Source: Patescibacteria group bacterium
GTDB taxonomy: Bacteria; Patescibacteriota; Doudnabacteria; UBA920
Reading direction: 5' to 3'
DNA length: 64,000 nt
Assembly (NCBI GenBank): GCA_013387205.1
Contig: WARV01000005.1
Coordinates: 27,924-91,923 of the forward strand
The translations under genes and the position numbers were made by a program. The notes beneath the pieces are model-generated. The model searched no databases, was not told where the DNA came from, and was given only the letters and a program-made list of their open reading frames with translations. Each line of letters begins with the position of its first letter. The stretch's first letter is position 1. This document shows, in pieces, positions 4,278 through 49,211 of this stretch.

Positions 4278-5267
4278 ATGCCACAGACAATACAAAAACC
4301 ATTAGCCGAACTGCATGCCCATTTGGGAGGTTCGGTGGATCCTGTTATACTTTGGTCCATTGCCCATCGCCAGGGAATCAAGCTGCCTAGCAAGAATTTT
4401 TGGGATTTTGAAGACATGATCACCATGACGGGCAAGGAGAAGAACAAGAACCTGGACGAGATGCATAATAATTTTTACCACTGGACGGAATTGATCACCT
4501 CTTCGCCCGAAGCTGTAGAAGAGGTGGTTAAAAGCGTTATCGGTGGAGGATACAGGAAATGCAATATCGTTTTGAACGAGTTAAGGTTTAACCCGATGTT
4601 CCGCAACAGGGGCGGCGAGCGCGATTTGGACCATATTATTTTAGCGTCTTTATGGGGAGTGGAGCGCGCAATTTTGGAATATCCCCAGGTTAAAGCCGGG
4701 GTGATTTTGATGGTAGATCGGATGTTAACTCTCGAGCAGAATTCCATCATTGTCAAAAAAGCCATCAAGCACAAAAGCGCAGGGGTTTTAGGCATTGATT
4801 TGGGCGGCCCTGACCGCAAGAACTTTTCCATAAAAGACCACGCGAACCTGTTTAAGGAAGCCAAGGCCGCGGATTTGGGAATTACCATCCATTCAGGGGA
4901 GGTCGGCAGTCTTGATGAGTTAAGGTTCGTGGTTGAAGAGATAAAACCGCACCGCATCGGCCACGGGATAATGTGCGTAAAGGACAAAGATCTAATGCGG
5001 AAAATTTCCAAGCAGGGGATTGTACTGGAAATTTGCCCGACGTCCAATTTAAAAAATAGCGTGGTAAAAAATTTAGCGGAGATGAAAAATATCATCCGCA
5101 CTTTGTTGAAACATAAGATAAAATTCACAATTAATACCGACGGGCCGGAAATGTATAACACGCATATTTATTCCGAGCAGGAAATGCTGGTTAAAAACAA
5201 GATTTTAACCCAAAAAGAAGTTGACCAGTGCACCAAATGGGCCTTTGAAGCGAGTTTTGTAAAATAA
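4278..5267 (+). CDS. Adenosine/AMP deaminase-family amidohydrolase
   Basis: 329 aa with N-terminal LHAHLGGS metal-ligand motif, HSGE and C-terminal TINTDGP (cf. SLNTDDP) motifs of the adenosine deaminase superfamily. Confidence 0.65.
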   Translation: MPQTIQKPLAELHAHLGGSVDPVILWSIAHRQGIKLPSKNFWDFEDMITMTGKEKNKNLDEMHNNFYHWTELITSSPEAVEEVVKSVIGGGYRKCNIVLNELRFNPMFRNRGGERDLDHIILASLWGVERAILEYPQVKAGVILMVDRMLTLEQNSIIVKKAIKHKSAGVLGIDLGGPDRKNFSIKDHANLFKEAKAADLGITIHSGEVGSLDELRFVVEEIKPHRIGHGIMCVKDKDLMRKISKQGIVLEICPTSNLKNSVVKNLAEMKNIIRTLLKHKIKFTINTDGPEMYNTHIYSEQEMLVKNKILTQKEVDQCTKWAFEASFVK

Positions 5268-5286
5268 ATAATTTAAAGATATTACA

Positions 5287-5326
5287 AGAGGCATCCTTTA
5301 TCAGATAAAGGATGCCTCTTGTTTTG
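5287..5326 (+). terminator. Rho-independent terminator hairpin
   Basis: agaggcatcctttatcagataaaggatgcctct is a 13-bp perfect stem followed by tgttttg. It lies between two convergent genes. Confidence 0.7.
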
Positions 5327-5367
5327 ATTTGTTCCTAAATTCTATATTCTGGATTCCATATTCTAAT

Positions 5368-5670
5368 CTATTCACACTCCGGCAATCCTAACAAATAATC
5401 CGTCTCTTGCCCGTTTACCAAAATACGCGCGTACTTTCTCCCTTCGGGATTCTTGCCCACGCTAACTTCCAATCTTTTAACTTGTGTCGGGTCTCTCGGG
5501 TCAATAATAAAAGCCGCGCCCTTGTTTTGGATAAAGTCGCACAACTCTACCTGGGTGTAGAACCCCTCAAAAACCGTACCGTCTTCTACCCAGTGGAAAT
5601 GCTCAATATCCCAAACATTAGGGCTTTCCAGTTGCCCCTCAACGCATTTTTTAGTAAGGATAATATGCAT
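5368..5670 (-). CDS. Hypothetical protein
   Basis: 100-aa ORF with coding-like composition and no recognisable motif. Confidence 0.4.
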   Translation of the reverse strand: MHIILTKKCVEGQLESPNVWDIEHFHWVEDGTVFEGFYTQVELCDFIQNKGAAFIIDPRDPTQVKRLEVSVGKNPEGRKYARILVNGQETDYLLGLPECE

Positions 5671-32407: not shown

Positions 32408-34885
32408 TTATACAAAACTTTCTGCTTCAAATATTAATATATCGTTTTCGTTATTGGTTTTCATCGTATCGATAAGATTCTGGCGGTACTGGACTACGTC
32501 TTGCTCTAAGTCAAAGCTTAAAAATTCCTGGTATTTTTCATTCAGCAATTTTGCTAATTCCATTGAAAAACCATTTTTCAATAAACAGATAATGTGCGGA
32601 TTATTTGTTCCGTATTTAACGTGGTCGTAAAAATCCGAATCAACCAAATCGAGGTCTTTCAAAATTTCCAGATACTTGAGGATATAGAAATCTACAAATT
32701 CCTGCTCTTCTTTTATTTTGGCTACGGCTAGGTTTATCCTCTGTACCTCGTTTTTTTCGCTGATGTTCACATATAAGCTTTGGTGCCCGTCTCCGCCGGT
32801 GCGGTCGCCCCACTTGGCGCCAACGTACACTAGGACATCTCCTCCCGCCTCCCTCCTTTTCCAGTAAGCGAGAAAACGGCTAATCATGAGCGGATACGGA
32901 GCCCCTTGGGACCGCCATGCTATAAACATGGAGTAAAAATTTCTCGCGATTTCATTGCCCTTTATACGGGCAATATTATCACTGCCACTTTTTAAGGTTA
33001 TGCCTTCAAAGAAAATCTTAACGATGGCATTGATTAAAGTTTCTGCACTGTTCATTTTTGGATTGCCCACTTCATTATAGTAAGCAAGATTGGCATTCAG
33101 TATTTGCTCGCTTTCTAAGATATTAAAGTCGTGTATATTGTTAGCAAAACACAGCCTACCCAATTCAGTTGCCGGAGCCGGTATGTCCGTAAGGCCGGAA
33201 GATCCGGGTTCAACATTTTCCAAGTAGGAAAGGACCTGCTTTGTTTTTTCTGTGTTTTCAGACTTCTCTAATAAAGGATTTTCTACAGTGTCTTCATGCT
33301 TGACCCCGGAATTCACCTTTTTATGATAAAAGGAGAGGGGCGAAAAACCCTTCGGAGAATAGGCTCCCCTCATCAAATAAATTTCCGGCTCAAGCAGCTT
33401 AAGGCTGCCCGATTCCAAGTCAAAAACTTCCTTGAAGCGGCAGACCCGGCCTATAAGATTTTTAAACTGGGAAGCGCTGAGGTGGCTCCTGCCTTTTTTA
33501 GGATTTAGTATGAAAATTTTCTGCGCCGGAATATTAACCCCTTCCAATAAAGTCGAGGTTGTGATGATAAATTCAAATTCTGGATTTTTTGAGAATATTT
33601 CTTCGATGTATAATTTTATAACATCGGGAATTCCGCCATGGTGGTAGAGTATCCCGTGCTTTATGCACTCAATTAGATTATATTCGGGATGGATTAGTTC
33701 GCTGATGGATTCGATAACCTTGTTTATTACCGGTGTTAAGGCTATGGGATTTTTTTGCCGTGCAAAGCTTAACGAAAAATCTTCAACGGTAACAGGCCGG
33801 TTAAGATAAATGATATTTTTATTAGCTTTGTGAGCCATGATGAACGCCACATCCGTGCGGTAATGTTTATTTGGTATGGGAAACGCCTGATCTAAAAATT
33901 GGTCATAAAAGTGCATGTTTTGCGTTCTGGTATCGTAAGCGTAAAACCTTTCGACTTTCATATACTCCTCGATCTTTTGGCCCCTCACCGCAATCTGGTG
34001 GTTTTTGATGCTCAGACTGCCAGTGTCTATCAGAAAGGGCGTAAAAAAATTTACCAGAGCCCTCTCGTTGCGCTTCTTTAATATCAGCAATACCTGAGCC
34101 AGCAGATGCGCTCGCTCGGAATCTTCCAAAATATTATGGGCTTCGTCAACCAGAGCCAAGTCCAAAGACAGCTGCTGGTGCTTCTGCAGCAAAATTAAAA
34201 GCCGCTCCTGGGTTAATACTGCCAAAAACGACTGGTCGGTTTCCCTGAACATATCGGGGTGGGTAATAATCTTTTTGAAATTTTGCCTTATCATCCCGTC
34301 TTTCAATAAGTTATGTTTGGTCTGCGCCAACAAGGCTTTGCTGGGTACGACGATACATATTTTTTTGTTTGGATAATTCCGAACCTTTCGCACGATCATC
34401 TCTGACTTTCCATAAGAAGTCGGGGCGACCACGGCGATATTGTCCTCAGTCAGGGAAAATTTGTTTAAAGCCAACTGACCTAACGACCTGTATAGGTTGG
34501 CGCCGTCCCCCTCGATTTTAAAAGATTCCTGGTATGCAGAAATGTAGAGATTGGAAAACGAATCCCTGCTATTTTCTCCGTTGGCATACTTGTTCTCAAT
34601 AAATTTTACTATGGGAATGTAGTCCCTGCTCAGCGCGACGTCTCTAAGGGGTTCGTAATCGCTAAATTGGTTTGCATACTTAAGTATGATCCTATAACCA
34701 AGCCGCTCGATATCAGGATCATCAGAGTTAAGGAAATAAACCGCAACTTTTAAAATAAATATTTTATTTTCTTCGGAAATATTTGCGCCGCCCAAGACTA
34801 ATTTTTTATAGACATTTAGAAACAGTGAGCCGTCAAGGTTCTTTTTGTTCCGGATCTTTTTTAGCGTCAGTTCGTAAATGTCCAT
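32408..34885 (-). CDS. hamB: SF2 (Ski2/Hel308-like) helicase, Hachiman HamB-like
   Basis: 825 aa. Motif I VVAPTSYGKS, motif II LVDEAHN, motif V ITTSTLLEGVNIP, motif VI QFKNLIGRVCR. Start overlaps the stop of the upstream DUF1837-like gene (shared nt 34885). Confidence 0.6.
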   Translation of the reverse strand: MDIYELTLKKIRNKKNLDGSLFLNVYKKLVLGGANISEENKIFILKVAVYFLNSDDPDIERLGYRIILKYANQFSDYEPLRDVALSRDYIPIVKFIENKYANGENSRDSFSNLYISAYQESFKIEGDGANLYRSLGQLALNKFSLTEDNIAVVAPTSYGKSEMIVRKVRNYPNKKICIVVPSKALLAQTKHNLLKDGMIRQNFKKIITHPDMFRETDQSFLAVLTQERLLILLQKHQQLSLDLALVDEAHNILEDSERAHLLAQVLLILKKRNERALVNFFTPFLIDTGSLSIKNHQIAVRGQKIEEYMKVERFYAYDTRTQNMHFYDQFLDQAFPIPNKHYRTDVAFIMAHKANKNIIYLNRPVTVEDFSLSFARQKNPIALTPVINKVIESISELIHPEYNLIECIKHGILYHHGGIPDVIKLYIEEIFSKNPEFEFIITTSTLLEGVNIPAQKIFILNPKKGRSHLSASQFKNLIGRVCRFKEVFDLESGSLKLLEPEIYLMRGAYSPKGFSPLSFYHKKVNSGVKHEDTVENPLLEKSENTEKTKQVLSYLENVEPGSSGLTDIPAPATELGRLCFANNIHDFNILESEQILNANLAYYNEVGNPKMNSAETLINAIVKIFFEGITLKSGSDNIARIKGNEIARNFYSMFIAWRSQGAPYPLMISRFLAYWKRREAGGDVLVYVGAKWGDRTGGDGHQSLYVNISEKNEVQRINLAVAKIKEEQEFVDFYILKYLEILKDLDLVDSDFYDHVKYGTNNPHIICLLKNGFSMELAKLLNEKYQEFLSFDLEQDVVQYRQNLIDTMKTNNENDILIFEAESFV

Positions 34886-35700
34886 TATTGTGGTACAGGC
34901 TGTTGAATTGCCCGCAGCTCTTCATTTAAAAACTGTTCAATTTTGGAATAGGTCGACTTTTGAATGCAAAACAAAATAAGGCCTGCGAAAGCACCTTCTC
35001 CTTTTATAGCAGTCAAGCGGTCTCGGACCGCCTCGTGGGAAATTTTATTCGTGATGTCATGGAATAAAACAGAAACTAAGATCGCGTTTTTCTTGGTTCC
35101 TGGAGTTTGTTGGATTTCAGTAATGTCCCCATCCAACAATTCCTTTACCTTTTTCCTGTCGCCCTGGGCCAAGCTTAGGCTGACGTCCATAATAACGCTT
35201 TGCCACAAGTTCGGCCGTCTCCCTTGAAGAAATTCCTGCATCGCAGTTTTTGACTCGTCCAGCAACTTTTTGTTTTTTGCATCCGGCCCCTCGTCGTTGC
35301 CGGTCTCGCCTGATTTAACTTCGCCATACCAAATAGCGTTGCCACTGACCTCAACATATGTCAGGTCAAATCCCTTTCTTATGCTCTGTTCTTCCTTATT
35401 AAAAAAGATTGTAATTTTTTTCAGGTTCGGCAAAAATTTATCAATAACGAGGTGGGCAATGAATTCTCCCATCATGCCTTTTTTTGTCTGCGATGACTTG
35501 CTGGAGTATCGCTTGATAAATTCAGCCAAAGTGTTTTTATACGAATGGATTCCCAGCGTAAATTCTTTTACTTCATTTTTGCCATGACAAATAGCGCTTA
35601 ATTCGCTTCTGATTAAGCCTTTAATTTCCTCGCTCAATTCGTTTATGTGGCAAACTACAAACCCGTCTTCTTGCGTAACGTTTATGCCCTTCATACGCAT
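34885..35700 (-). CDS. hamA: HamA-like (DUF1837-type) predicted PD-(D/E)xK nuclease
   Basis: 271 aa, the typical HamA size. Candidate catalytic core GFDLTYVEV ... YGEVKSG (D ... E-V-K). Directly coupled to the helicase gene. Confidence 0.55.
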   Translation of the reverse strand: MRMKGINVTQEDGFVVCHINELSEEIKGLIRSELSAICHGKNEVKEFTLGIHSYKNTLAEFIKRYSSKSSQTKKGMMGEFIAHLVIDKFLPNLKKITIFFNKEEQSIRKGFDLTYVEVSGNAIWYGEVKSGETGNDEGPDAKNKKLLDESKTAMQEFLQGRRPNLWQSVIMDVSLSLAQGDRKKVKELLDGDITEIQQTPGTKKNAILVSVLFHDITNKISHEAVRDRLTAIKGEGAFAGLILFCIQKSTYSKIEQFLNEELRAIQQPVPQ

Positions 35701-36258: not shown

Positions 36259-37416
36259 TTATTGATTGTTCTTTAACGCCGCATAAGTTGCCAGCACATT
36301 CTGCATAGCCGTCTTTTCTGCCGCTGTGATGTCGCGGTCTTTGTAGTACTTATCACCCTCGTAGCGCATCTTGGTTTTCGTTCCGGCAAGGACAGCGTTG
36401 ATAATTTTCATTTCGTCATCACCAACCAGGGTGACCGAAGTTTCCCAGACCGTGCTGTTATTATCCCGGCTGACTGAGAGCGGAATGTAGTTATAGTTTA
36501 CTCCGTCTATGTTGAAGATATATTTGTTAACGAACAGCCAGTCGTCGCCGTGGTAAGTCACTTTCATCCAGAGAGTCGGTTGTCCGTTATCCGGTTTGTC
36601 GATCAGCAGCATTACAACGCTCTGCCAATAGCTGGGAGGAAAGCCCTTGTCATAATAAGTCGTGGTCTTTTTAATATCATCATAATCAGAACCCATTTTA
36701 GACAGGACGGCTTTGGTCTTTGCGTCAGCTTCTGCTTTGGCCTTTGCCTGGGCTTCCTGGTCGACCTTGGCTTTAGCGGCAGCTTCAGCATCAGCCTGCG
36801 TCTTGGCTGTTTTTTCTTCCTCGGTGAAGATGCGTTTTACGCTTAAAGTATTAGTAGTCTTTTTGCCGCCATTAGTAGCAGTAATATTAATTTGGTTTCT
36901 GCCTTCGTTCGGGACAGGAGTCTGGTAATCAAAGCTGCCATCTTTTTGAACAGTAACTCGTTTATTGTTTATGAGCAGCATTGACCCTGCTGGATTGACC
37001 TTGCCTTTGACGCTGACTGTTTTGGCCTGGACGGTATAGCCACTCGCAGGTTCAGTAATAGTAAGGGAAGGCGCACGGCCTGCATAAGCAGTGGAGATTT
37101 TTAAAACCGCAAATACCAGGACGATAGCTACAGTGGCAATCGTGTTGGTCTTTGCGGTAAACTTGGTTTTTTTCCAGAGGAACCAGATTCCGGCACCTGG
37201 GATAGTCAGGTACCACAGGAACGGAGTTAGGATAACTAATAGCACTATAGCGGAAATCTTTAAGATCTTTTTGATTCCCGCTGACTGGCTTGGCATGTGC
37301 GGCAGGGCTGCCGCAACTGCTGGTTGTGCAGAGGCCGGGACAAGGCTCTTTTTGCAGTGCCTGCAAACGGTAGCCTGATCCTGGATGTCCTCGGCGCAAT
37401 AGGGACATTTTTTCAT
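36259..37416 (-). CDS. Zinc-ribbon membrane protein with extracytoplasmic Ig-like and A/K-rich segments (paralog 2)
   Basis: Start set at MKKCPYCAEDIQDQATVCRHC (13 codons inside the track ORF). Two TM helices, a beta-rich domain, then an AKAKAEADAKTKA-type low-complexity stretch. GC-rich. Confidence 0.55.
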   Translation of the reverse strand: MKKCPYCAEDIQDQATVCRHCKKSLVPASAQPAVAAALPHMPSQSAGIKKILKISAIVLLVILTPFLWYLTIPGAGIWFLWKKTKFTAKTNTIATVAIVLVFAVLKISTAYAGRAPSLTITEPASGYTVQAKTVSVKGKVNPAGSMLLINNKRVTVQKDGSFDYQTPVPNEGRNQINITATNGGKKTTNTLSVKRIFTEEEKTAKTQADAEAAAKAKVDQEAQAKAKAEADAKTKAVLSKMGSDYDDIKKTTTYYDKGFPPSYWQSVVMLLIDKPDNGQPTLWMKVTYHGDDWLFVNKYIFNIDGVNYNYIPLSVSRDNNSTVWETSVTLVGDDEMKIINAVLAGTKTKMRYEGDKYYKDRDITAAEKTAMQNVLATYAALKNNQ

Positions 37417-37440
37417 TGTAGTTTCCTTGATCGGTTTTTC

Positions 37441-37570
37441 CTGGCCGGATAACATAAAGGCCCCCGCCAGGAGCTCGACCCTTTCGGGCCGAACGCATGG
37501 GTTTCCCCATACGACCGATCAAGGAACCCTGACGAGGGGTTCTATATCTTGATCGGATTTTTTGACCATA
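37441..37570. other. GC-rich structured element (candidate ncRNA or structured 5' leader)
   Basis: An ~130-nt island of ~60% GC in AT-rich DNA. Long-range stem ccttgatcgg ... ccgatcaagg encloses ggcccccgccaggagctcgaccctttcgggcc. An extra hairpin gaaccctgacgaggggttc and a third cttgatcgg copy follow. The overlapping track ORF 37052-37522 is probably spurious. Confidence 0.3.
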
Positions 37571-37958: not shown

Positions 37959-39257
37959 ATGTCAACACAAAAAGGAACGAAAACAACTTGCTTGCAATGG
38001 CACAACGAAAAGCGCAGGGTCAAAGACCTGCTGCCGTGGGATAAAAATCCCAGAACTCTTTCCGAAGAGCAGGAAGAACACCTAAAGGAATCTATCTCCA
38101 AATTTAATTTGGCAGAGATTCCCGTAATCAACCTGGACAATAAAATTGCCGCGGGACATCAACGTTTGAAAATTCTGCATCTGCTCGGCAGGAGCAATGA
38201 GATAATCGATGTAAGGGTGCCAAACCGCAAACTGACCCAAAAAGAGTTTGAGGAGTATAACCTCAGGAGCAATGCAAACGTGGGCTCATGGAATTATGAA
38301 ATGCTTTTGGAGCACTTTGAGATCGACACTCTCTTGGAGATCGGGTTTGACGAGCAGGCTTTGGCAGACGTGTGGGATGGCATGCTCGAAACGGAGGACG
38401 ATAATTTGGACTTGGAAAAAGAAATCAAAAAAGCCCAGAGCACCAAAATTAAGCCTGGGGATATGTTTTCCTTAGGCAGGCACACTTTACTCTGCGCCGA
38501 TAGCCTTGAACTTAAAAACATTAAGCGCCTGGTCTGCAACCAAAAAATGGACGTGTTGTATGTAGATTTACCCTATAATACAAAACTCTCGTACTCTGAA
38601 GGCGTTGGCAAGAAGCGCAACTATGGCGGCCATACCAATGACAACAAAACCGATGCCGAATATGAGCAGTTTGTTACGACTATGGTTAGCAATGGATTGG
38701 CAGTTTCCAAACCCGATGTCCATAGTTTCTTCTGGTGTGATGAAAGGTATATTGGGTTATTTCAGAAAGTCTTTGCCAACTGCGGCATTAATTCGCTCCG
38801 CGTATGTTACTGGCTCAAGAACGGCTTTAACGTGACACCGCATGTGGCCTTTAATAAAGTTTTGGAAGCTTGCGTCTACGGTACGGTTGGCAAGCCCTAC
38901 TTAAATCCAAACGCTACAAATTTGCATGAGTTGCTTAACAAAGAACTCGGCACTGGTAACCAGTTGGCTGATGACATTTTGGATCAGTTTAACATTTGGC
39001 TGGCCAAGCGTGATGCCGGGCAAGATTACGAGCACCCGACCCAGAAGCCAATTACATTAGCCGAGCGCCCATTAAGGCGTTGCAGCAAACCAGGCGACAA
39101 TGTGCTGGACTTAACGGCTGGTAGCGGCTCGACAATATTGTCGTGCGAGCAACTTAAACGCCGCTGCTTTGCCTGCGAGATCGAACCAGTGTTTTGCCAG
39201 GTAATCATTAACAGATTTGAAACTTATGCCAAACAAAAAGTTAAAAAACTCAACTAA
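37959..39257 (+). CDS. ParB-like nuclease domain fused to N6-adenine/N4-cytosine DNA methyltransferase
   Basis: 432 aa. N-terminal ParB/Srx-like region (WDKNPRTLSEEQEEHLKESISKFNLAEIPVI). C-terminal MTase motifs: DLPYN (motif IV variant), HPTQKP, DLTAGSGST (motif I). Confidence 0.75.
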   Translation: MSTQKGTKTTCLQWHNEKRRVKDLLPWDKNPRTLSEEQEEHLKESISKFNLAEIPVINLDNKIAAGHQRLKILHLLGRSNEIIDVRVPNRKLTQKEFEEYNLRSNANVGSWNYEMLLEHFEIDTLLEIGFDEQALADVWDGMLETEDDNLDLEKEIKKAQSTKIKPGDMFSLGRHTLLCADSLELKNIKRLVCNQKMDVLYVDLPYNTKLSYSEGVGKKRNYGGHTNDNKTDAEYEQFVTTMVSNGLAVSKPDVHSFFWCDERYIGLFQKVFANCGINSLRVCYWLKNGFNVTPHVAFNKVLEACVYGTVGKPYLNPNATNLHELLNKELGTGNQLADDILDQFNIWLAKRDAGQDYEHPTQKPITLAERPLRRCSKPGDNVLDLTAGSGSTILSCEQLKRRCFACEIEPVFCQVIINRFETYAKQKVKKLN

Positions 39258-40008
39258 AGAAATTGAAATCAAATACGGTGACCAGTTTGCACTTGGCGAG
39301 CATAAGTTACTGTGTGCGGATGCCGCTGACACCAAAACCATTTCCGCTTTCATCGGCAACGCTAAAATCAGCCAGATAAACTGTGATGTTCCATACGGAA
39401 TTGAGTATGCCCAATCGAAGGCTGGCTTTGGCAAAATTAAGGTGGACAAGGAAATTTTAAACGACGATTTTGTCTCAGACAGCCAGTATGCAGCCTTTAC
39501 CAAATCCTGGCTGGATGCCGTGGTACCACACCTGGCCAAAAAGAATTCCGTGTATATCTTTAACTGCGATAAAATGTTGTTTGCCCTTCGTGACGGTATG
39601 CAGCAAGCTGGAGTGAAATTTTCCCAGCTTCTCATCTGGATCAAGAGCCAGGCAGTCATTGGACGCAAAGATTATCTGCCAGCCCACGAACTTATTGCTT
39701 ATGGCTGGGCCGGAACTCACGAGTTCCACCGTTCCAAAGACAAAAGCGTACTGTATTATCCTAAGCCTTCCAAAAGTCCACTTCACCCGACTCAAAAACC
39801 AGTTGGCCTTATTCGTAAGTTAATTCTGAATAACACGAAAATTGGGGATACGGTTTACGACTGCTTTAGTGGTAGCGGAACTTGTTTAATTGCTTGCGAG
39901 CAAACCAGGCGTAAATGCTTGGCGGTTGAACTTGACCCACAGTATTGCCAGACTATTATTACCCGCTACGAAAAATTAACAGGTATTAAGGCTAAAAAGT
40001 TAACTTAA
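39217..40008 (+). CDS. DNA methyltransferase (N6-A/N4-C, beta-class), paralog of the preceding MTase domain
   Basis: 263 aa. DVPYG (DPPY variant), HPTQKP and DCFSGSGT motifs. Overlaps the previous gene by 41 nt. Confidence 0.75.
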   Translation: MKLMPNKKLKNSTKEIEIKYGDQFALGEHKLLCADAADTKTISAFIGNAKISQINCDVPYGIEYAQSKAGFGKIKVDKEILNDDFVSDSQYAAFTKSWLDAVVPHLAKKNSVYIFNCDKMLFALRDGMQQAGVKFSQLLIWIKSQAVIGRKDYLPAHELIAYGWAGTHEFHRSKDKSVLYYPKPSKSPLHPTQKPVGLIRKLILNNTKIGDTVYDCFSGSGTCLIACEQTRRKCLAVELDPQYCQTIITRYEKLTGIKAKKLT

Positions 40009-40012
40009 GTTT

Positions 40013-40447
40013 ATGATTACCGACAAACAAAAACAATTATTACTTGAGCAATTGAGAAAAACGCCGATCATCCAGTTGGCTACTGAAAAAACCGGCATCT
40101 CTCGCATGACTTACTATCGCTGGAGACGGGAAAGCCAAAAGTTTAAAAGGGCGGCTGACGAAGCCTTGGCCCAGGGAGAGCTCCTGATTAACGATTTATC
40201 TGAAGGGGTGCTCATATCTTTAATTAAGGAGAAAAATTTTCAGGCAGTTTCCCTGTGGCTAAAACAACACCATCCTAAGTATGCGGCAAGGTTAGAAATT
40301 TCCGGCCGCATCGAGCATGAAGACGGCAATCTTTCGGCTAAGCAAAAAGCCATTATTAAGCAGGCCCTGCGCCTGTCTATGATTAACAAACAAAACTACT
40401 ATGAACAAAGAAAAGGAGTTCCAAAAGATCCAGCACTGGATGCTTAG
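40013..40447 (+). CDS. Terminase small subunit-like HTH protein
   Basis: 144 aa. HTH (LATEKTGISRMTYYRWRRE) and an LWLKQHHPKYA-type segment typical of phage TerS. Immediately upstream of terL and overlapping it. Confidence 0.5.
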   Translation: MITDKQKQLLLEQLRKTPIIQLATEKTGISRMTYYRWRRESQKFKRAADEALAQGELLINDLSEGVLISLIKEKNFQAVSLWLKQHHPKYAARLEISGRIEHEDGNLSAKQKAIIKQALRLSMINKQNYYEQRKGVPKDPALDA

Positions 40448-41900
40448 TGACATTAAAGTCAGGAGGGAAATCGTTACCAAAGACCACAGTTGGTTTTTCA
40501 GCTATTACTTAACCGGCCACCACGACCTGGAAACCGCCCCTTTCCAGCACGAGATGCTGGCTATCACCGAAGACCCAAAAGTCGATTTGGCGGTGATAAC
40601 CGCCTTTAGGGACAGCGGCAAAAGTACTATTTGTACCCTGTCTGGCGTATTGTGGTCGGTCTTAGGATGCCAAAAGAAAAAGCTGGTTATCATTATCGGC
40701 AAGACTTTAGACAAAGCCCAGACCCATCTGGTCAACATCAAGCACGAGTTGGAAAATAATGAGATGCTCAGGAAAGACTTAGGGCCTTTCCAAGAAATCA
40801 GTGGTCAGTGGGGCCTTCAGGCTTTGATTATTCCAAAGTACAATGCCAAGATCATGGTAAGCTCAGTCGGCCAATCCGTGCGTGGTGAAAAATATTTGCA
40901 AAGCCGCCCTGACCTGATTATTTTGGACGACGTGGAAGATCTGGAATCCGTCAAAACCAAAGAGAGCCGTGACGGCCTCTGGAACTGGTTTGTCGGCGAA
41001 GTCCTGCCTGCCAGAAGCCATAACAATTCCAAAGTCATCGTGGTAGGCAACCACCTGCACGAAGATTCGCTGCTTAAAAAGCTTCAAAAGAAAATTGAAG
41101 CCGGGGAAATTGACGGGATCTACCGTGAATATCCGATTATGGATAAAGATAAAAATCCCTTGTGGCCAGCCAGGTATCCTGACATGGCGGCTATCGAAGC
41201 CAAAAGAAAAAGTACTATGGACGAGCGAGCCTGGTACCGCGAGTTTTTGCTAATTATTCTGCCTGACGACGACCAAATCGTTAAGTCTGAATGGCTGCAG
41301 GAGTACGAACCTGGACAGCTTCCTGATAAGGATTTTCGCTATGCGGCGATGGGTGTGGATCTGGCTATCTCCCAACGCAGTAAGGCAGATAGTACCGCAA
41401 TAATTCCGGTTTATGTTTACGGAAACCAAGAAAACCTCAAAGTTTACCTGCTGCCACACCCAATCAACAAGCAGATGACAGGGTTGGAAACTTTGCAAAC
41501 ACTTAAAAATCTGTCTGACACTTTAAGCACAAGAGGCCGTGCCAAAATTTTTATCGAGAACAACGGCATGCAGCAGGTATTTGTTGAACAATTACAGAAC
41601 GCAGGATATCCGGCAGTAGGTATGCCTTCTTACGGCTCTGACAAACCGGGTAGGTTTAAATCCATCAGCCACTTGATCCAGGGAGCTAAAGTTTTCTTTC
41701 CCAAAGGGTGTTATCAAGAACTGCGGCAGCAGATGCTGGGCTTTGGCGTGGAAGCCCATGATGACTTGGTTGACGCCCTGACTTTACTGCTCCAAGGTGT
41801 AATGAAGGAAGATAGGCCAGCATGCAGGACTGGATGTTTTCCAGTGCCGACATGGTCAACCGGTAGGACTGAGTTCGGAAAAAGCATTGCGGTGTATTAA
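40401..41900 (+). CDS. Phage terminase large subunit
   Basis: 499 aa. Walker A AFRDSGKST, Walker B LIILDDVEDL, and a C-terminal RNase H-like nuclease region with conserved acidic residues (GVDLAIS ... EAHDDLVDAL). Confidence 0.8.
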   Translation: MNKEKEFQKIQHWMLSDIKVRREIVTKDHSWFFSYYLTGHHDLETAPFQHEMLAITEDPKVDLAVITAFRDSGKSTICTLSGVLWSVLGCQKKKLVIIIGKTLDKAQTHLVNIKHELENNEMLRKDLGPFQEISGQWGLQALIIPKYNAKIMVSSVGQSVRGEKYLQSRPDLIILDDVEDLESVKTKESRDGLWNWFVGEVLPARSHNNSKVIVVGNHLHEDSLLKKLQKKIEAGEIDGIYREYPIMDKDKNPLWPARYPDMAAIEAKRKSTMDERAWYREFLLIILPDDDQIVKSEWLQEYEPGQLPDKDFRYAAMGVDLAISQRSKADSTAIIPVYVYGNQENLKVYLLPHPINKQMTGLETLQTLKNLSDTLSTRGRAKIFIENNGMQQVFVEQLQNAGYPAVGMPSYGSDKPGRFKSISHLIQGAKVFFPKGCYQELRQQMLGFGVEAHDDLVDALTLLLQGVMKEDRPACRTGCFPVPTWSTGRTEFGKSIAVY

Positions 41901-41908
41901 AATGGCCG

Positions 41909-42604
41909 CTAACAAACGAATTTTTTCTGTTTTTTGCTGTATGAACACTTAACCGCATCAGTTTTGCCGTCTGATAAGCATTGCCTTACCAACTCGATCA
42001 GCTGGTCAGATATGACTTTGCCTTTTTGGTATGCATAATGGTAACCGAAGTTGCCTTTGCTCGGATGCGGTACGCCAATGATTTTGCGATTAGGATAAAC
42101 GTAAGCCAGTAACTCAAAAGCGTGATTGCCCACAGCAATCAGCGGCGTATTTTCCGGTATTAGAGAAATTTCTTTACTGAGGTAATTGCTGATGCTGTAG
42201 CGTATGGTGTTGAGAGATAAGGCTTTAACGTTTTTATTGCTTTGGCATTTAACTAATTCTGTCCAGAGGATTGGGCCGGTTAAACCAGTCTTGTCAGCCA
42301 AGTCCCGTAGCGGACCATAAAAATTTATATAGTCTTTGCGATTGAGTTCCCAGTAGCGCACAGCAGCTGGGTAATTTCGGTTTGCCTTGTCTGTAAAATA
42401 TATGGTTTCCTCCGGCCTTGCACGGCCAGGGTTCATGCCGACAATGATAGCACTTTTGCCCTTGCGGCCGTCTATTTCGTAGTAAAGGCATCGGGCGATG
42501 ATGCCTTGTTCGGGTTGGTAGTCGATATCAGAAAAGCTTTGCCAGGTTTTGTCATCCATCATGCGCTGGCCAATTACGGCGATTTGTTCGGAGATTGATT
42601 GCAT
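41909..42604 (-). CDS. Uracil-DNA glycosylase superfamily protein (MUG/SMUG-like motifs)
   Basis: 231 aa. Motif A IIVGMNPGRA and motif B GVPHPSKGNFGY are spaced ~130 aa apart, as in the UDG fold. Confidence 0.55.
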   Translation of the reverse strand: MQSISEQIAVIGQRMMDDKTWQSFSDIDYQPEQGIIARCLYYEIDGRKGKSAIIVGMNPGRARPEETIYFTDKANRNYPAAVRYWELNRKDYINFYGPLRDLADKTGLTGPILWTELVKCQSNKNVKALSLNTIRYSISNYLSKEISLIPENTPLIAVGNHAFELLAYVYPNRKIIGVPHPSKGNFGYHYAYQKGKVISDQLIELVRQCLSDGKTDAVKCSYSKKQKKFVC

Positions 42605-42610
42605 AGCTTT

Positions 42611-43261
42611 TTAAGTTTTAATTTTCAGAGGCATGCCTGCCTTTGTGACTTCCCATCCTTTCAAGTACCGAAAAAGAATCCCCGTAATTTCCATAAAAGC
42701 CATAAGCGCTTCCAGATAACCAGAGTCTGGTATAGCTTCGTCCATGGAGCTGATTTTAATCACTACAGTATGTTCGGATTCGTTGGGTTTGCTCAAAGCA
42801 TTGGCAAAATGTTTGTCCGAAAGATGGATGTATCCTGAAGTATGTTCGTAGACATTTTTTAATTGCGGGTACTCCTGGGCAAGGCTTTCGATAAGGTAGC
42901 CGTCTTTTAGTTTTCGGCCATCTTTATCTTTCAGCGTATTAATTTTGGTTCCTTTAAAAACTTCCATGGCAAAATCATGAAGATCTTTTACCAGCCACGC
43001 TGCTCGGTAGCGCAGTAAATTATCCAGTTGCATGCGAATCAGCGGGGCTGCGGCTATAAAATTATGTTTTTCAATCAGATCGCAGAATCCCGACATTAGG
43101 CATAATGAGCGGTTCATGACTGCAAAAGAAAACAGATCCATAGGATACAGTTTTCCATCAGCTGCCCTCATTATTTTTTCTCCCACTTCTTTATGGTCAT
43201 TGACCGTAGAACGCAGACTTGCAATTGCTTGCTTGATTTTGTCAGAAAGCTCTATTTCCAT
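42611..43261 (-). CDS. Hypothetical protein
   Basis: 216 aa with no motif recognised. The gap to the UDG-like gene is 6 nt and to the HEPN-like gene 20 nt. Confidence 0.45.
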   Translation of the reverse strand: MEIELSDKIKQAIASLRSTVNDHKEVGEKIMRAADGKLYPMDLFSFAVMNRSLCLMSGFCDLIEKHNFIAAAPLIRMQLDNLLRYRAAWLVKDLHDFAMEVFKGTKINTLKDKDGRKLKDGYLIESLAQEYPQLKNVYEHTSGYIHLSDKHFANALSKPNESEHTVVIKISSMDEAIPDSGYLEALMAFMEITGILFRYLKGWEVTKAGMPLKIKT

Positions 43262-43281
43262 GTTTTTGTCCCAATGGCTAA

Positions 43282-44619
43282 TTAAGAAATTTTTACCAGT
43301 AGTAATGCTATGACATTTTCCATTGATTTAAATACAAGCGACAAAGTTTTGTCATCTTTTAAAATAAATCCTTTATGAGCATAAGCGCACCGTAATTTGT
43401 AAAGATCATTAAACCACGGCAGCAATTCCGGCTTTAGCGCATGAATGCCGCCGACAATATATTTCTTGTTGTCGCTATTCACATTTTTAGGTACAAAAAG
43501 GTGTTCCAAGCTGCAATACATAAGCAAAATTTTAGCGCCAAGATCTGGAATCTGAGTGGCAGAACTCAAGATGTCCAGCGTAGGTTGAATATCATTGACA
43601 CTCCTCTCAGTCCAAGGGTTTTTCAAGCTATCCAAAATTTTTTGGTTTTCTAAAAAGAACTTTTCTATTCCGCCAAACGTACGATCGTCGATATACATCT
43701 TAGCCAGGCCTCGGTAGCCGTAAGACAAAAACAGGCAGCCATCGGGCGTCTTTAGCCAAGGTTCTCTTTTGTCTTCGTCCCAACTAAAAACTCCCAAGTA
43801 GCCGCTGTTTAGAAGGACAGGCGAAGTTGGCGCTTCCAGCCTAACGTCAGATTGCCCGAAATCCATCTGTGGCCGGTAGATGAAACTGGCGATTCGCAGC
43901 ATATTAAAAAAAGTTCTGAGCCAAGCGGAAGCGTACCAGTAGGCATAAGTCATCGATCCTTCGGTTGCAAATCCTATGGAAGGAGAGTGAAAAAAATTTT
44001 TGGCTTCTTTTTTATTATACTGTCGTAAATGGGGTTGGTATTGTTGATGTTTGGCAACAAGCTGGCTGGCTTTCAAAAAACAGACAAACGGCAGACTAAG
44101 TTTTGCAAATAAGCCGTCAAAAAATGCCTGCACGTCTCCAAATGGAGTATCGAAATACGAGACTGTGGTTACTAACGTCTGCGATTGAACAAATCCTTTC
44201 AAGCGCTCGAAATATTCCTCAATGATTGCCTGATATCCTTTTGTTTTATCACGCCAAGGCACTACGAATTGACTTTCGTCAACATACGACCCGCCCCCAA
44301 CCCTTTTGTGATATTCCTTTTCATCACTAAATTCAAAAGCCATTTTGCAGCGAAATAAAATATTAGTTACGTCAGCGGGAGAAATTTTCAGGCCTTTATC
44401 GACGAAGTATTCGCACTCTTTCTGTATTAAAGGCAGCAAAAAACGCTGGTGATAATATTGTTCTTTACCCCATTTATCAACGGGTGGCATCAATTTGGCA
44501 AGAGAGGCTTCTGTATCAGCCACTCGCTCGAGATGTAGCCACATCTGCTCACCAATTTGGTTTTTGACGGTTTGTAAAAAAGAAGTCGGCATAGATATAT
44601 TGTAGCACTTTTCGGCCAA
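43282..44619 (-). CDS. Hypothetical protein with C-terminal HEPN-like Rx4H motif
   Basis: 445 aa. The C-terminus NDLYKLRCAYAHKGF contains RCAYAH (R-x4-H), analogous to the motif in the 28878-30011 protein. Confidence 0.45.
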   Translation of the reverse strand: MAEKCYNISMPTSFLQTVKNQIGEQMWLHLERVADTEASLAKLMPPVDKWGKEQYYHQRFLLPLIQKECEYFVDKGLKISPADVTNILFRCKMAFEFSDEKEYHKRVGGGSYVDESQFVVPWRDKTKGYQAIIEEYFERLKGFVQSQTLVTTVSYFDTPFGDVQAFFDGLFAKLSLPFVCFLKASQLVAKHQQYQPHLRQYNKKEAKNFFHSPSIGFATEGSMTYAYWYASAWLRTFFNMLRIASFIYRPQMDFGQSDVRLEAPTSPVLLNSGYLGVFSWDEDKREPWLKTPDGCLFLSYGYRGLAKMYIDDRTFGGIEKFFLENQKILDSLKNPWTERSVNDIQPTLDILSSATQIPDLGAKILLMYCSLEHLFVPKNVNSDNKKYIVGGIHALKPELLPWFNDLYKLRCAYAHKGFILKDDKTLSLVFKSMENVIALLLVKIS

Positions 44620-44722
44620 ACTAGCGGCTTTTCCTTAGCTTTCCGGGGTCTGGACTTCCTCTGCAATTTGAGTCATTCCTTTGATTGTGAGTGATATTTT
44701 GTATATAATTAATAAAGAAGCT

Positions 44723-45643
44723 ATGTCAAAAATTACAAAACCTGTGTTAATAACAGAATATGGACACCTTTATAAGGGTGATTGTTTACAGATAATGAGA
44801 GGGATAAAATCTGAAAGCGTTGACCTGTTTTTTGCCGACCCTCCATTTAACCTGAATAAATCTTACGGGAATGGTGTCAGGGATGACTTGCAGGAAAGCG
44901 AATATCTGGAATGGTGCCACAAGTGGATTGATGAAGGCGTGCGCGTCCTTAAACCCGGAGGTTCATTTTTTCTCTATAATATTCCCAAATGGAATGTCCA
45001 GCTGGCAAGCTATATTTCCAAGTCTTTAAATTTCCGGAGCTGGATAGCAATAGAAATAACTTTTTCTCTTCCGATTAAAGGCAGGCTATATCCGTCTCAT
45101 TACTCCTTGCTCTATTTTGTAAAAGGTAAGAAGCCCAACACTTTTGAACCGCCAAGACTTCCAATGCAGGTTTGCCGTCACTGTGGTGGGGAAATAAAGG
45201 ATTACGGCGGATATAAAAATAAGATGAATCCCAAAGGGATCAACTTATCTGATATCTGGACTGATATACCGCCCGTTAGGCACAAGAAGTACAAAAATCG
45301 CGAAGCCAATGCTCTAAGCCTAAAACTGCTCGACAGGATCTTGGATATGTCCTCTAAAGAAGGTGATGTAATACTAGACCCTTTTGGTGGCAGCGGGACG
45401 ACTTATATAGCAGCCGAATTGAAAATGCGGAAATGGATTGGAATGGAGATATCTACCACTGATGAAATCACGAGACGATTTAAGAGCATGGCCAAGGATA
45501 AGGAATACTATGACTGCTTAAGAGAAAATGTAAATGTTTTATTTACAAAGAAAGCTTTGGAATTACGAAAAAAACACGGCCACCATAACGGTAAGTACGT
45601 GCTTAGCGAAACAAATATTACAAAACAAAAAGCGTTGTTCTAA
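44723..45643 (+). CDS. DNA methyltransferase (N4-C/N6-A, beta-class) of a candidate type II R-M pair
   Basis: Start set at MSKITKPVL. Motif IV FADPPFN, motif I DPFGGSGTT. A CxxC ... zinc-finger insertion (CRHCGG) is present. Confidence 0.75.
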   Translation: MSKITKPVLITEYGHLYKGDCLQIMRGIKSESVDLFFADPPFNLNKSYGNGVRDDLQESEYLEWCHKWIDEGVRVLKPGGSFFLYNIPKWNVQLASYISKSLNFRSWIAIEITFSLPIKGRLYPSHYSLLYFVKGKKPNTFEPPRLPMQVCRHCGGEIKDYGGYKNKMNPKGINLSDIWTDIPPVRHKKYKNREANALSLKLLDRILDMSSKEGDVILDPFGGSGTTYIAAELKMRKWIGMEISTTDEITRRFKSMAKDKEYYDCLRENVNVLFTKKALELRKKHGHHNGKYVLSETNITKQKALF

Positions 45644-45646
45644 AAA

Positions 45647-46291
45647 CTATAATAAGGCTCTGCCATCCGTACCTTTTGGAATGCGCGGAGCTTTTTTATT
45701 TAGTCCGTCCTGCTCTACTACAATAATATAGATTACACCATTTTTGTACGGGATACTTTGCCAGAGCGGCAGGTATGGCGCTATTTCCCTGAAGTTACCG
45801 ACCCGGTCAGTAAGATAGGGATAGAGATTTGTAGATGGTAAAACCAATACTCCACCGGCGAGTTCTTTATTTAAAACTCCTAAGCAGATTTTATTCAGTG
45901 CCCTGTGGCTGGATGATATATTGCCAGTTTCCCATTCAATAGCAAACAGACCGAAAGGTGTTTCCCGGACAGCATCAAGAGGGCCTGTACCGGCCACTCC
46001 GCGCGGACGCAGGCGCAATTCATCCTTCCAGCCCTTGGTTTTCAAATAAGTTATACAAGCTTCTTTGATAGGTTTGACGCCGTTTCCCTCACCACGGCCT
46101 TTGCCTTTTGAGTTAGGATTTAAGTAAAAACCAGCAGAACCGGGAGGCCAGGAAATTTTACTAATCGCAGCCTTTATCTCTTTTTCTATTTGAACCATTA
46201 TTAAAGAGCGCGGTAAAGGACCTTTTTTCAAAATATATTTTGTATCAACGATTTTCATATTTCTGGCTAAAGTATAAATTAATTGTATCAC
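45647..46291 (-). CDS. Putative type II restriction endonuclease (BamHI/BglII-like D...ExE signature)
   Basis: 214 aa. LDAVRETPFGLFAIEWETGN gives D ... E-W-E, as in BamHI-like catalytic cores. Convergent with the MTase gene. Confidence 0.4.
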   Translation of the reverse strand: MIQLIYTLARNMKIVDTKYILKKGPLPRSLIMVQIEKEIKAAISKISWPPGSAGFYLNPNSKGKGRGEGNGVKPIKEACITYLKTKGWKDELRLRPRGVAGTGPLDAVRETPFGLFAIEWETGNISSSHRALNKICLGVLNKELAGGVLVLPSTNLYPYLTDRVGNFREIAPYLPLWQSIPYKNGVIYIIVVEQDGLNKKAPRIPKGTDGRALL

Positions 46292-46390
46292 TAAATTTAC
46301 CAGCAGTCACTACCAAGCCCATCAAAGAAAATACGACGTTTTTCCTAGCTTTGCGGGGTCTGGACTTACTTTGGAATTAGCGTCATTCCT

Positions 46391-47731
46391 TTGCTTGTAG
46401 AGATTATTAACTTTTACAAGCATATGCAAGCAAACCAAGGGGTTTTGGCGGGCAGTGTTGAGTACTGCCTGTATGCTCGGAAAAGTACCGAGCAGGATGA
46501 GCGACAGGCTTTGTCCATTGATTCCCAGATCAAGGAAATGATGAGCCTGGCCGAGCGGGAGAACTTAACTATTAAGGAAATCAGGCGGGAGAGCCATTCA
46601 GCAAAAAACTCCGGCTGTAGGCCCGTATACAACGAGCTGATTTTAGATGTCCGAAGCGGCAAGTTTTCGGGCATCCTGACTTGGGCACCGGACAGGTTAA
46701 GTAGGAATGCAGGTGACTTGGGAGCCATTGTGGATTTAATGGATCAGGGTCACTTAAAGGAAATCAGAACCCACGGCCAAAGGTTTACCAATTCGCCGAA
46801 CGAAAAATTCTTGCTAATGATCCTTTGTAGCCAGGCTAAGCTGGAAAACGACAACCGGGGCATTAACGTCAAGCGTGGCCAAAAGACCAAAGTGGAAATG
46901 GGTATGCGGCCATGCATGGCACCACTGGGATACCTGCAAATCATGGACGGCCGAAGCAGAAGGAGCAAGACCATAGTAGATTCAGAAAGAGCGCCCATAA
47001 TCAAAGACATTTTTGAATACGTAGCCTACGGCCACGCCTCAGGCCGGGACATTCTAAAGTGGATTAACAACAACACCAATTTTAAAACCCGAAAAAATAA
47101 ACCCGTAGCTTTAAGCATGGTCTATAACATGCTGAGAAACCCATTCTACTACGGCGAGTTTGAATACCCCAAAAACAGCGGCAAATGGTATCATGGTTTG
47201 CACGAGCCGCTGATTACCAAAGAGCTGTTCGACAAAGCCCAAGAAAAGCTGGATCAGGCACCCACAGCCAAAAGTTGGAACGCCAAGGTGTTTGATTACA
47301 CCAAGCTATTCCAGTGCGGCGTGTGCGGCTCTGGGGTTACAGCGCAGGAAAAGTTCAAGAAAATCAAGGACGGCAGCATGAGGCGGTATGTCTACTATAA
47401 CTGCACGGGAGGATTAAACCGGGAGTGTAAACAGCCATATATTAGGGAAGAAGAGCTGCAAAGCCAGCTGCTGGAATTAATCGACCAGGTCAACCTTGAT
47501 CAGATGGGTATCCAACAAAAAGTCATCGAGGAAGTGGAACGGTACAAAAAGCTGCTGCATGGCGTATTCGGGCAAAAAGACCAGCTAATTAAAATGTACG
47601 AGGTAGACCCCAAAGCTTATGCCAAACACATTCTTAGAGAGGGAACCAAAGACGAAAAGCGGGAAATATTATCCTGCTTTAAGGACCAGATTTACCTTAA
47701 GGACAAAAAGATTTATCTAAGTAAAAAGTAG
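46391..47731 (+). CDS. Large serine recombinase (resolvase N-terminal domain + recombinase domain + zinc ribbon)
   Basis: 446 aa. N-terminal YARKSTEQDERQALSIDSQ (catalytic Ser region), DRLSRN motif, recombinase-domain segment YGHASGRDILKWIN, and C-terminal CGVCGS ... YYNC zinc ribbon. Confidence 0.85.
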   Translation: MLVEIINFYKHMQANQGVLAGSVEYCLYARKSTEQDERQALSIDSQIKEMMSLAERENLTIKEIRRESHSAKNSGCRPVYNELILDVRSGKFSGILTWAPDRLSRNAGDLGAIVDLMDQGHLKEIRTHGQRFTNSPNEKFLLMILCSQAKLENDNRGINVKRGQKTKVEMGMRPCMAPLGYLQIMDGRSRRSKTIVDSERAPIIKDIFEYVAYGHASGRDILKWINNNTNFKTRKNKPVALSMVYNMLRNPFYYGEFEYPKNSGKWYHGLHEPLITKELFDKAQEKLDQAPTAKSWNAKVFDYTKLFQCGVCGSGVTAQEKFKKIKDGSMRRYVYYNCTGGLNRECKQPYIREEELQSQLLELIDQVNLDQMGIQQKVIEEVERYKKLLHGVFGQKDQLIKMYEVDPKAYAKHILREGTKDEKREILSCFKDQIYLKDKKIYLSKK

Positions 47732-47739
47732 CTCCTAAA

Positions 47740-48759
47740 TTAAGCCTCAAGAAGTTTTGCCCGAATTTCATTTAAATGGACCGATCCGGACTGATCGGGC
47801 GGAAATATTTCTCTTAACGAATACGGAAAATATCCGCTAATGGCTGGCCAGAGGCGGTATGAATCAATAATAAAATTCCCGGCTTCAAATTTGTCCGGCG
47901 CTGTAGTTGTCAAAATATATAATTTTAGACCGTGATTTTTGGCCGCATCCCAGATAATTTTATTGACATGCTTATCGTGAAATCCGTAACCGATGACCAG
48001 CAATTTTTTATTGCCTTCCTTGAGGACAGCCTTAAATAATTCCAGATAATACTTCAGTAAGGGCTCGTTGTTTATTTCTTGTTCCTTGTTGACCCCAATA
48101 ATCATTTGGCTGCCGCCGTGCGCCGACCTCCAGCCGAACGAGCCATGCAGTTTTATGTAATGTAGGGTGTTAGTATTTTGAATAATTTCTTTTTCAGCCA
48201 AATCAGCGGCATTTTCGCCCGGCAAGGTAACGGAGTAAGTTGGCAAAAATTCCCTTTGTGATAGAGTAGTAAACTCCTGAGGGAATCTCGGCGCACCCGG
48301 GGACATAAAATTGTTTCTTCTTTCCATAAAGATATCCTGATTTAAGGTGAAAAAGAAACCTCTCTCTGAGGGAGTACCTACAAACAGATTCAAAAGCTCG
48401 CCAAGCTTATAAGTGTCTAAGGAGGTCGGATTATCGTCGTTCATCTGCCATGTCCGTATGGAATCGTCGAGTTGTTTGTAAACTTGTTCCATCACTGACT
48501 GCAAAACTTGCTTCTCTTCTTCAGTAAAAGCCGGGGTAGGCAGGCTGGTATTACCATCGCTATCAATTCCATGCACGACTTTGGAATAAACAGACTCGAA
48601 ATCATAATCCATGCTAAGCAGATTTTTGATACGTTCTTGCCGACTAATCTGAGCATGGTTAAAAATCTTTGACCACATTTCGCGGGCAAGAAAACCATTG
48701 AAGTTTTTGGTAAATCCAGCTCCAGTCAGTAAAACAAGGCGTTTTGAGGCAATAGGCAT
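47740..48759 (-). CDS. SIR2_2-family (Sir2-like NADase-type) protein, standalone
   Basis: 339 aa. LLTGAGFTKNFNG (Rossmann GAGxS), FTLNQD (TxNYD-like), IKLHGS (catalytic His) and LLVIGYGFHDKHVN. Confidence 0.7.
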   Translation of the reverse strand: MPIASKRLVLLTGAGFTKNFNGFLAREMWSKIFNHAQISRQERIKNLLSMDYDFESVYSKVVHGIDSDGNTSLPTPAFTEEEKQVLQSVMEQVYKQLDDSIRTWQMNDDNPTSLDTYKLGELLNLFVGTPSERGFFFTLNQDIFMERRNNFMSPGAPRFPQEFTTLSQREFLPTYSVTLPGENAADLAEKEIIQNTNTLHYIKLHGSFGWRSAHGGSQMIIGVNKEQEINNEPLLKYYLELFKAVLKEGNKKLLVIGYGFHDKHVNKIIWDAAKNHGLKLYILTTTAPDKFEAGNFIIDSYRLWPAISGYFPYSLREIFPPDQSGSVHLNEIRAKLLEA

Positions 48760-49136: not shown

Positions 49137-49211
49137 TGGCTGGGGTGGAAGGATTCGAACCTTCGAATGGCGCCTCCAAAGGGCGCTGCCTTACCACTTG
49201 GCGACACCCCA
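49137..49211 (-). tRNA. tRNA-Gln (anticodon UUG)
   Basis: 75 nt: UGGGGUG acceptor with U1:A72, D-arm GCCAAGUGGUAAGGC, anticodon stem GCGCC/GGCGC with loop CUUUGGA, T-arm GAAGGUUCGAAUCCUUC, discriminator G, encoded CCA. Confidence 0.8.

Follow-up and report, generated by a model that had tools for sequence, protein, structure and literature searches.

Three consecutive open reading frames (ORFs) on the minus strand of the 64,000-nt stretch of DNA analysed here (referred to as the window), which are designated A, B and C in the following, quite probably represent three single-gene cargo items which were acquired independently and lie stacked at one locus, and not one system. A encodes a divergent protein of the uracil-DNA glycosylase (UDG) superfamily, B a divergent relative of DUF5677 proteins, and C a protein with a C-terminal HEPN-like domain (Table 1). 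An initial annotation of the window had interpreted the trio as one undescribed system, with a glycosylase as sensor coupled to an RNase as effector; this interpretation fails, since homologues of A, B and C were never found together elsewhere. The stack would occupy the variable bay of a mobile island that owes its integration to a large serine recombinase. The backbone of the island would comprise this recombinase, two DNA methylases and a terS-like helix-turn-helix (HTH) protein, and relatives of the island would carry different defence genes between the ends. The host of the island is probably a genome of the candidate phyla radiation (CPR; Patescibacteria). Had a glycosylase and a HEPN protein been combined in one system, this would have constituted a new type of immunity; the evidence speaks against it. 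A, B and C are three uncharacterised families outside PADLOC and NCBIfam, for which single-gene hypotheses are now available that can be tested.

Distribution and arrangement of the three genes

Family hidden Markov models (HMMs) were constructed from the homologue sets and were run on the six-frame ORFs of every fetched locus. These comprised, for C, 30 genome loci with flanks of ±10 kb; for B, 80 metagenome loci, 56 of them with a flank of 1.5 kb or more on one side, together with four more (84 in total) and 16 viral loci; and for A, seven loci. Neither A nor B was detected in the loci of C (0 of 30), neither A nor C in those of B (0 of 84 metagenome and 0 of 16 viral loci), and neither B nor C in those of A (0 of 7, the locus of a homologue with 81% identity included). 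Among 139 loci the window was the only one to contain all three genes, or more than one of the families; recovery of A, B and C in the window by the same HMMs served as positive control. Searches with the window genes by tblastn against 143 loci yielded no contrary match. The recurrence of homologous trios in other genomes, on which the one-system interpretation depended, was thus not observed.

Clustering of the flanking ORFs revealed no conserved neighbour for B or C apart from recombinases and, for B, restriction-modification (R-M) enzymes of type IIG. Further neighbours which appeared to be conserved were discarded, most of them being shadow ORFs in antisense orientation within the genes. 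A co-location of B and C had been suspected from match lists (contigs of 16933 and 9877 bp); the loci in question, L031 and L034, showed no adjacency of B and C, and the 449-aa ORF at which L034 ends is not a homologue of C.

The arrangement described in the initial annotation, i.e., three head-to-tail ORFs on the minus strand between a terL gene and an R-M pair, was confirmed with its coordinates. The gaps measure 6 nt between A and B (42605-42610) and 20 nt between B and C (43262-43281). A terL-like ORF (Terminase_6C, E 1.5e-5) stops at position 41900, convergent with A, and a pair consisting of an N6_N4 methylase and a BamHI-family endonuclease lies beyond C. Translation placed the motifs which had been pointed out at 42425-42439 (GMNPG) and 42059-42067 (HPS), both in A, and, for RCAYAH, in C at the position given in Table 1. 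The length of 445 aa stated for C corresponds to an existing ORF, which would need a TTG start; for the homologues, which have 432-445 aa, the alignment starts at the ATG at 44592 (MPTSF...), and a protein of 436 aa is therefore more likely. Scans of the three proteins against PADLOC, NCBIfam and PHROGs gave nothing usable, and the earlier statement that the trio matches no named defence system holds, with no PADLOC hit for A, B or C. The G+C content does not set the three genes apart from their surroundings.

As to the designation as one operon, the tight spacing stands, and matches resembling promoters or terminators were no commoner in the region of the trio than in shuffled sequences. Judging from the spacing, the three genes are probably co-transcribed in the window, yet they would not form a functional unit. 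A three-component system specific to this lineage, in which the glycosylase would make or sense lesions in modified phage DNA and, via the middle protein, switch on the HEPN RNase, would agree with the common orientation, the short gaps and the lack of an internal terminator signal, as well as with the defence-rich setting, the intact catalytic motifs of A and the HEPN motif of C. Such a system is nevertheless very improbable: the homologues co-occur in none of the loci examined, each family being present alone and with changing neighbours; B is paired with a KAP NTPase in a related element (L035, see below); and the architecture of C is constant and full-length, with no partner anywhere.

Table 1. 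Positions of the genes under study and of other features in the window
Feature	Position	Strand	Remarks
Gene A	41909-42604	(-)	231 aa, divergent UDG-superfamily protein, candidate DNA glycosylase
Gene B	42611-43261	(-)	216 aa, all-helical, divergent DUF5677 relative, possibly HEPN-like without Arg
Gene C	43282-44592	(-)	436 aa from ATG; 445 aa from TTG at 44619; N-terminal part of ~320 residues and C-terminal HEPN-like domain
C-terminal HEPN-like helical bundle of C	43285-43620	(-)	residues ~325-436; RCAYAH (R401, H406) at 43375-43392; LEHLF (E363, H364) upstream
Element backbone	37959-41900	(+)	two N6_N4 methylases, terS-like HTH protein, terL-like gene (Pfam)
60-nt direct repeat, left copy	44629-44688	(+)	between C and methylase
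Type II R-M cassette	44681-46291		N6_N4 methylase (+) 44681-45643, Pfam E 7.9e-41; BamHI-family endonuclease (-) 45647-46291, E 6.7e-52
60-nt direct repeat, right copy	46339-46398	(+)	just upstream of serine recombinase gene
Large serine recombinase	46391-47731	(+)	Resolvase, Recombinase and Zn_ribbon_recom domains
Hachiman-type pair	32408-35700	(-)	HamA and DEAD/ResIII helicase (HamB)
LOOT RNA, Rfam RF03000	37476-37598	(-)	full-length match, 77.5 bits (gathering score 46.4)
Stand-alone SIR2_2 protein	47740-48759	(-)	
tRNA-Gln	49137-49211		just past the defence-rich stretch

Gene C and its HEPN-like domain

Homologues of C, 213 in number and with 46-57% identity, were found across phyla, all of them annotated as hypothetical proteins. 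Their labels include Peregrinibacteria, Minisyncoccia, Magasanikbacteria, Verrucomicrobia, Marinimicrobia and, with an archaeal label, one Pacearchaeota; a scan of genome contigs added many homologues from Acidobacteriota. When 1.84 billion cluster representatives were searched with a profile, 85 proteins were obtained, all with the architecture of C, either complete or as fragments, and no remote relative tying C to a named family. Since this search retrieved only the family itself, C belongs to an isolated family.

The HEPN-like C-terminus assigned to C in the initial annotation was borne out. An AlphaFold model of the protein is confident (predicted local distance difference test (pLDDT) 87, predicted template-modelling score (pTM) 0.89), and its C-terminal region is predicted to form the helical bundle of the HEPN fold. 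The residues R401, H406, E363 and H364 were invariant in 27 family members. An R-x4-H motif is present by chance in 29% of the shuffles of C; the weight of the motif derives therefore from its invariance and from the match of the fold, not from its mere presence. Curated HEPN models (Pfam, NCBIfam) did not match C itself; matches below threshold were obtained in one family member only, namely to HEPN_Swt1 (E 0.019), RiboL-PSP (0.081) and Apea (0.19), and all three cover the R-x4-H stretch in the C-terminal 125 residues of that member. Comparison of the model with the PDB by Foldseek gave weak matches (best 3mfn, E 0.7), and the C profile had no meaningful match by sequence to solved structures. 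For the N-terminal ~320 residues, which are of mixed alpha/beta structure in the model, no solved structural match was found, Foldseek against the PDB included.

Outside the HEPN region, the most conserved stretch is located at 43678-43782 of the window (residues ~271-305 of C; W-D-E-D-K..P-W..P-D-G-C-L-F-L-S-F-G-Y-R-G...D.R). Residues 287-296 within it were modelled with low confidence (pLDDT below 50), and the stretch could be a ligand-binding or regulatory loop. In about 6 of the 30 genome loci (L006, L010, L023, L024, L025, L027) the homologue of C is broken into two or more ORFs or frames. These split versions may be pseudogenes or assembly errors; the former would suit a gene which is costly, toxic and often inactivated.

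No conserved neighbour, antitoxin-sized ones included, was present beside C in the 30 loci. For this reason HEPN-MNT and other two-gene toxin-antitoxin systems were rejected for C. B as partner or antitoxin of C was likewise dismissed because of the lack of linkage between the two.

The closest parallel to C is perhaps ApeA, a defence of the abortive infection type which consists of a single HEPN protein (bioRxiv 10.64898/2026.01.26.701840). Both are single polypeptides of comparable length in which a C-terminal HEPN domain with R-x4-H comes after an N-terminal part without catalytic function; both lack a partner gene and occur as mobile defence cargo. However, C did not qualify as a member of the ApeA family in the Pfam and PADLOC tests, since there was no hit to ApeA_NTD1, no significant hit to HEPN_Apea (the best being the value given above for one member) and no hit to a PADLOC model, and the N-terminal part is without structural match. 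By analogy, C would be a new family of a known kind, i.e., single-protein HEPN systems resembling ApeA. DARNA, or PD-T7-3 (bioRxiv 10.64898/2026.02.22.705581), was also considered and was rejected for its reversed order of domains: there the HEPN domain is N-terminal and the second domain is all-helical and Pds5-like, whereas in C the HEPN domain is C-terminal and the other part is mixed alpha/beta.

In a mechanism of the ApeA type, the N-terminal part of C would sense infection and would hold the HEPN RNase inactive until then. Once released, the C-terminal RNase with R401 and H406 would cut tRNA or other RNA and so abort the infection; homodimerisation would be needed for the active site. 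The chances that C is a HEPN RNase acting in defence appear to be about even.

Genes A and B

The assignment of A to the UDG superfamily, which had been made in the initial annotation, proved to be sound. Residues 52-184 matched Pfam PF03167 with 31.2 bits, above the curated cutoff of 24.3 (E 2.7e-7), and motif 1 and motif 2 are both conserved. Across 30 homologues the residues G56, N58, P59, W114, T115, K119, C120, G177, P179 and H180 were invariant. In motif 1 of the family only G, N and P (G56, N58, P59) are constant and the Met is variable; in motif 2 H180 is constant, together with G177 and P179. The block GPILWTELVKC, which was also invariant in the 30 homologues, is peculiar to the A family.

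The window protein resembles SMUG1 (family 3 UDG) by its motif 1, GMNPG, and by a motif 2 which starts with HPS. It differs in that motif 2 continues with KGN instead of PRN, so that it reads HPSKGN and not the full HPSPRN, and in the variability of the Met of motif 1 in the family. A relationship of A to SMUG1 could not be demonstrated, as no solved SMUG1 was matched by phmmer or profile at E up to 10.

The A family is small (79 matches) and has a patchy distribution in Patescibacteria, Bathyarchaeota, Nitrospirae, Planctomycetota and Bacteroidota. The closest homologue, i.e., that with 81% identity, has an Mrr-type nuclease on one side and small unrelated genes on the other, in a neighbourhood wholly different from that in the window. 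Other homologues were found inside a type I R-M operon (Saccharicrinis) and adjoining MazE/PIN (a Nitrospirae genome). Genes of the A type therefore stand alone in defence or mobile settings, including the island in the window, and have no conserved partner. Such a context is known for Brig1 and Brig2, which are stand-alone enzymes with UDG fold that excise modified phage bases (PMC11078745; bioRxiv 10.1101/2025.10.29.685425). A can be likened to them by context and superfamily, not by sequence comparison, as a stand-alone UDG-superfamily gene which is annotated as hypothetical and occurs in defence islands or mobile elements; moreover, Brig1 lies near a gene with a SIR2 domain, as does A in the window. 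A difference from Brig1 and Brig2 is that an Asn-type motif 1 (GxNPG) and the His of motif 2 are kept in A. By analogy with these enzymes, the target of A would be a modified or unusual base, which it would remove from invading DNA. A represents a new clade within the known UDG superfamily, for which a role in defence is plausible; that A is a stand-alone defence glycosylase can be put forward only tentatively.

For B, 128 homologues were obtained. The window protein had no Pfam match at E up to 1, PF18928 (DUF5677) included; 16 of 30 family members matched PF18928 at E up to 0.1, the best with 9.2e-7. The family is without an invariant R-x4-6-H; its invariant residues are R51, R76, D80, R84, D120, Y138, H146 and S148. 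A profile-profile alignment paired W..VY..TSGYIH of B with W..LY.LRCAYAH of C; it is weak (E 0.21) and gives a hint that H146 of B may be the counterpart of the HEPN His. The B profile had no meaningful match to solved structures, and B was not found in the collection of phage genomes.

In six loci B is located directly downstream of large R-M enzymes of the Eco57I/MmeI type (type IIG), among them L055, L058, L067 and L075 (and L034), and on plasmids of Bacteroides and Vibrio it stands beside integrases or transposases. DUF5677 was reported to be enriched near serine recombinases (PMC12632615); in agreement with this, B is near a serine recombinase in the window and in L035, and half of the B family matches PF18928. 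B possibly has a HEPN fold which lacks the Arg, and its family accompanies recombinases and R-M enzymes; any specific role for B is doubtful.

Two further observations concern locus L034. The setting of B contains there also a gene with an EVE domain. The homologue of B itself (P0139, at 4477-5610 of the locus) has 377 aa, with a hydrophobic N-terminal extension of ~160 residues which is probably membrane-spanning; some members of the B family may thus be membrane-anchored.

A role of the three genes outside phage defence, with A as a repair UDG of the host, C as an addiction toxin stabilising the island and B as an unrelated helical protein, is unlikely. The A family is too small and too patchy across phyla for this, and occurs in variable contexts of the defence type rather than in conserved housekeeping contexts; C has no conserved antitoxin-sized neighbour in 30 loci, and B is not linked to C. 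Within the preferred reading of the trio as independent cargo, a more far-reaching proposal would be that C defines an as yet undescribed family of abortive-infection systems made up of a single HEPN protein. The N-terminal sensor of this family would have a fold without solved counterpart, the strongly conserved W-D-E-D...P-D-G...G-Y-R-G segment included, and the family would owe its spread to integrases and large serine recombinases, above all in CPR bacteria. The proposal would further be that A represents in parallel a new clade of antiviral glycosylases similar to Brig. Taken together, this proposal is somewhat less likely to be right than wrong.

The mobile element and its surroundings

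C occurred in none of the phage, plasmid and viral-contig collections (50,697 phage genomes; 2.9 million viral contigs), and its link to mobile elements rests for this reason on the neighbouring recombinases. Relatives of the serine recombinase of the window, with 51-61% identity, were found near homologues of C in four loci. In L002 the recombinase gene lies upstream of C at a distance of 38 nt, and in L030 downstream at 614 nt; in L029 and L015 the distance is 2-4 kb. Three of these loci carry the labels Patescibacteria-group, Kaiserbacteria and Saccharibacteria; L002 is from an uncultured bacterium. In other loci C follows a tyrosine integrase after 14 nt (L117), is inside a prophage, at its integrase end and next to the integrase (L119), or lies near TraC/TraG-like genes (L121).

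In the window, C and the recombinase are separated by the R-M cassette, which is exactly flanked by two copies of a 60-nt direct repeat. The copies are 85% identical, and their core is unique to these two sites of the window, with 0 expected by chance; each copy is situated just upstream of a gene on the plus strand, i.e., the methylase and the recombinase. The repeats look like a scar, or a duplicated upstream region, from the insertion of the cassette, which fits a pair of C and recombinase that was once adjacent. The repeat was absent from the related loci. A direct repeat derived from tRNA-Gln, as a border of the island, was not found, the only notable repeat being that which flanks the R-M cassette.

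The best locus for B, L035, is syntenic with the element in the window, as it contains the recombinase (54% identity), the two methylases (39% and 52%) and the terS-like HTH gene. Between the ends of the backbone it carries as cargo a type III R-M pair, a KAP P-loop NTPase, B and a bPH protein; A, C and terL are missing. Together, the window and L035 outline a family of serine-recombinase islands in CPR bacteria, in which the backbone is fixed and the defence bay can be exchanged, and such a family could guide the discovery of defence genes in these poorly studied organisms. KAP NTPases have been reported as defence proteins bearing varied effector domains. At 5941-8606 of L035, downstream of the type III R-M pair, the start of B overlaps the stop of the KAP NTPase gene (681 aa) by 4 nt, and B might work together with the NTPase there.

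Serine recombinases are known to mark defence genes in so-called 'RADS' islands of Bacillota (PMC12632615). The element in the window is similar in having a large serine recombinase flanked by changing cargo (R-M, KAP NTPase, DUF5677 and Abi-like genes); it differs by its occurrence in CPR genomes instead of Bacillota, and by a backbone of methylase, methylase and HTH protein.

No portal, capsid or other structural genes follow terL in the window, and the backbone looks like a phage remnant or a satellite-like element rather than a prophage. The three genes might serve the element itself, as accessories for counter-defence or replication, for example with a UDG which cleans uracil from the DNA of the element and a HEPN RNase for host shut-off or for competition between elements. 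It would be in line with this that the trio belongs to an element with orphan-looking methylases and is flanked there by the recombinase and the terL-like gene, that distant relatives of B occur on 16 viral contigs and of A on one, and that a single homologue of C was located within a prophage. This explanation is nevertheless quite unlikely, given the absence of C from the phage genomes and viral contigs, the homologues of A and B in R-M operons, toxin-antitoxin loci and plasmids without phage genes, and the lack of capsid and portal genes; besides, prophage genes at the integrase end commonly protect the host.

Several points weigh against the interpretation as independent defence cargo. The tight spacing of A, B and C would be equally compatible with an operon encoding proteins that act together solely in this lineage. 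The metagenome contigs were mostly short, just 28 of the 80 loci of B having at least 1.5 kb on both sides, and the assessment of the association of the three genes with defence relied on a small number of annotated neighbourhoods. A had no sequence match to any solved UDG (phmmer and A profile, E up to 10), except for a marginal hit to the family 4 enzyme 1ui0 (E 0.42). One DUF5677 gene which was tested gave no protection against six phages (PMC12632615), and to these points the absence of C from the phage, plasmid and viral-contig collections has to be added.

The placement of the trio among defence genes on a mobile element, as originally described, was corroborated by the nearby R-M pair and by the Hachiman-type pair and the SIR2_2 gene, which are located on either side of the element; defence genes are abundant throughout the region between 32 and 49 kb. 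A LOOT RNA, a motif on which the literature searched contained no publication, was also detected in this region. It is positioned directly upstream of a gene for a 398-aa protein with a zinc ribbon and an Ig-like domain (36259-37455), and adjoins the methylase backbone at the left end of the latter.

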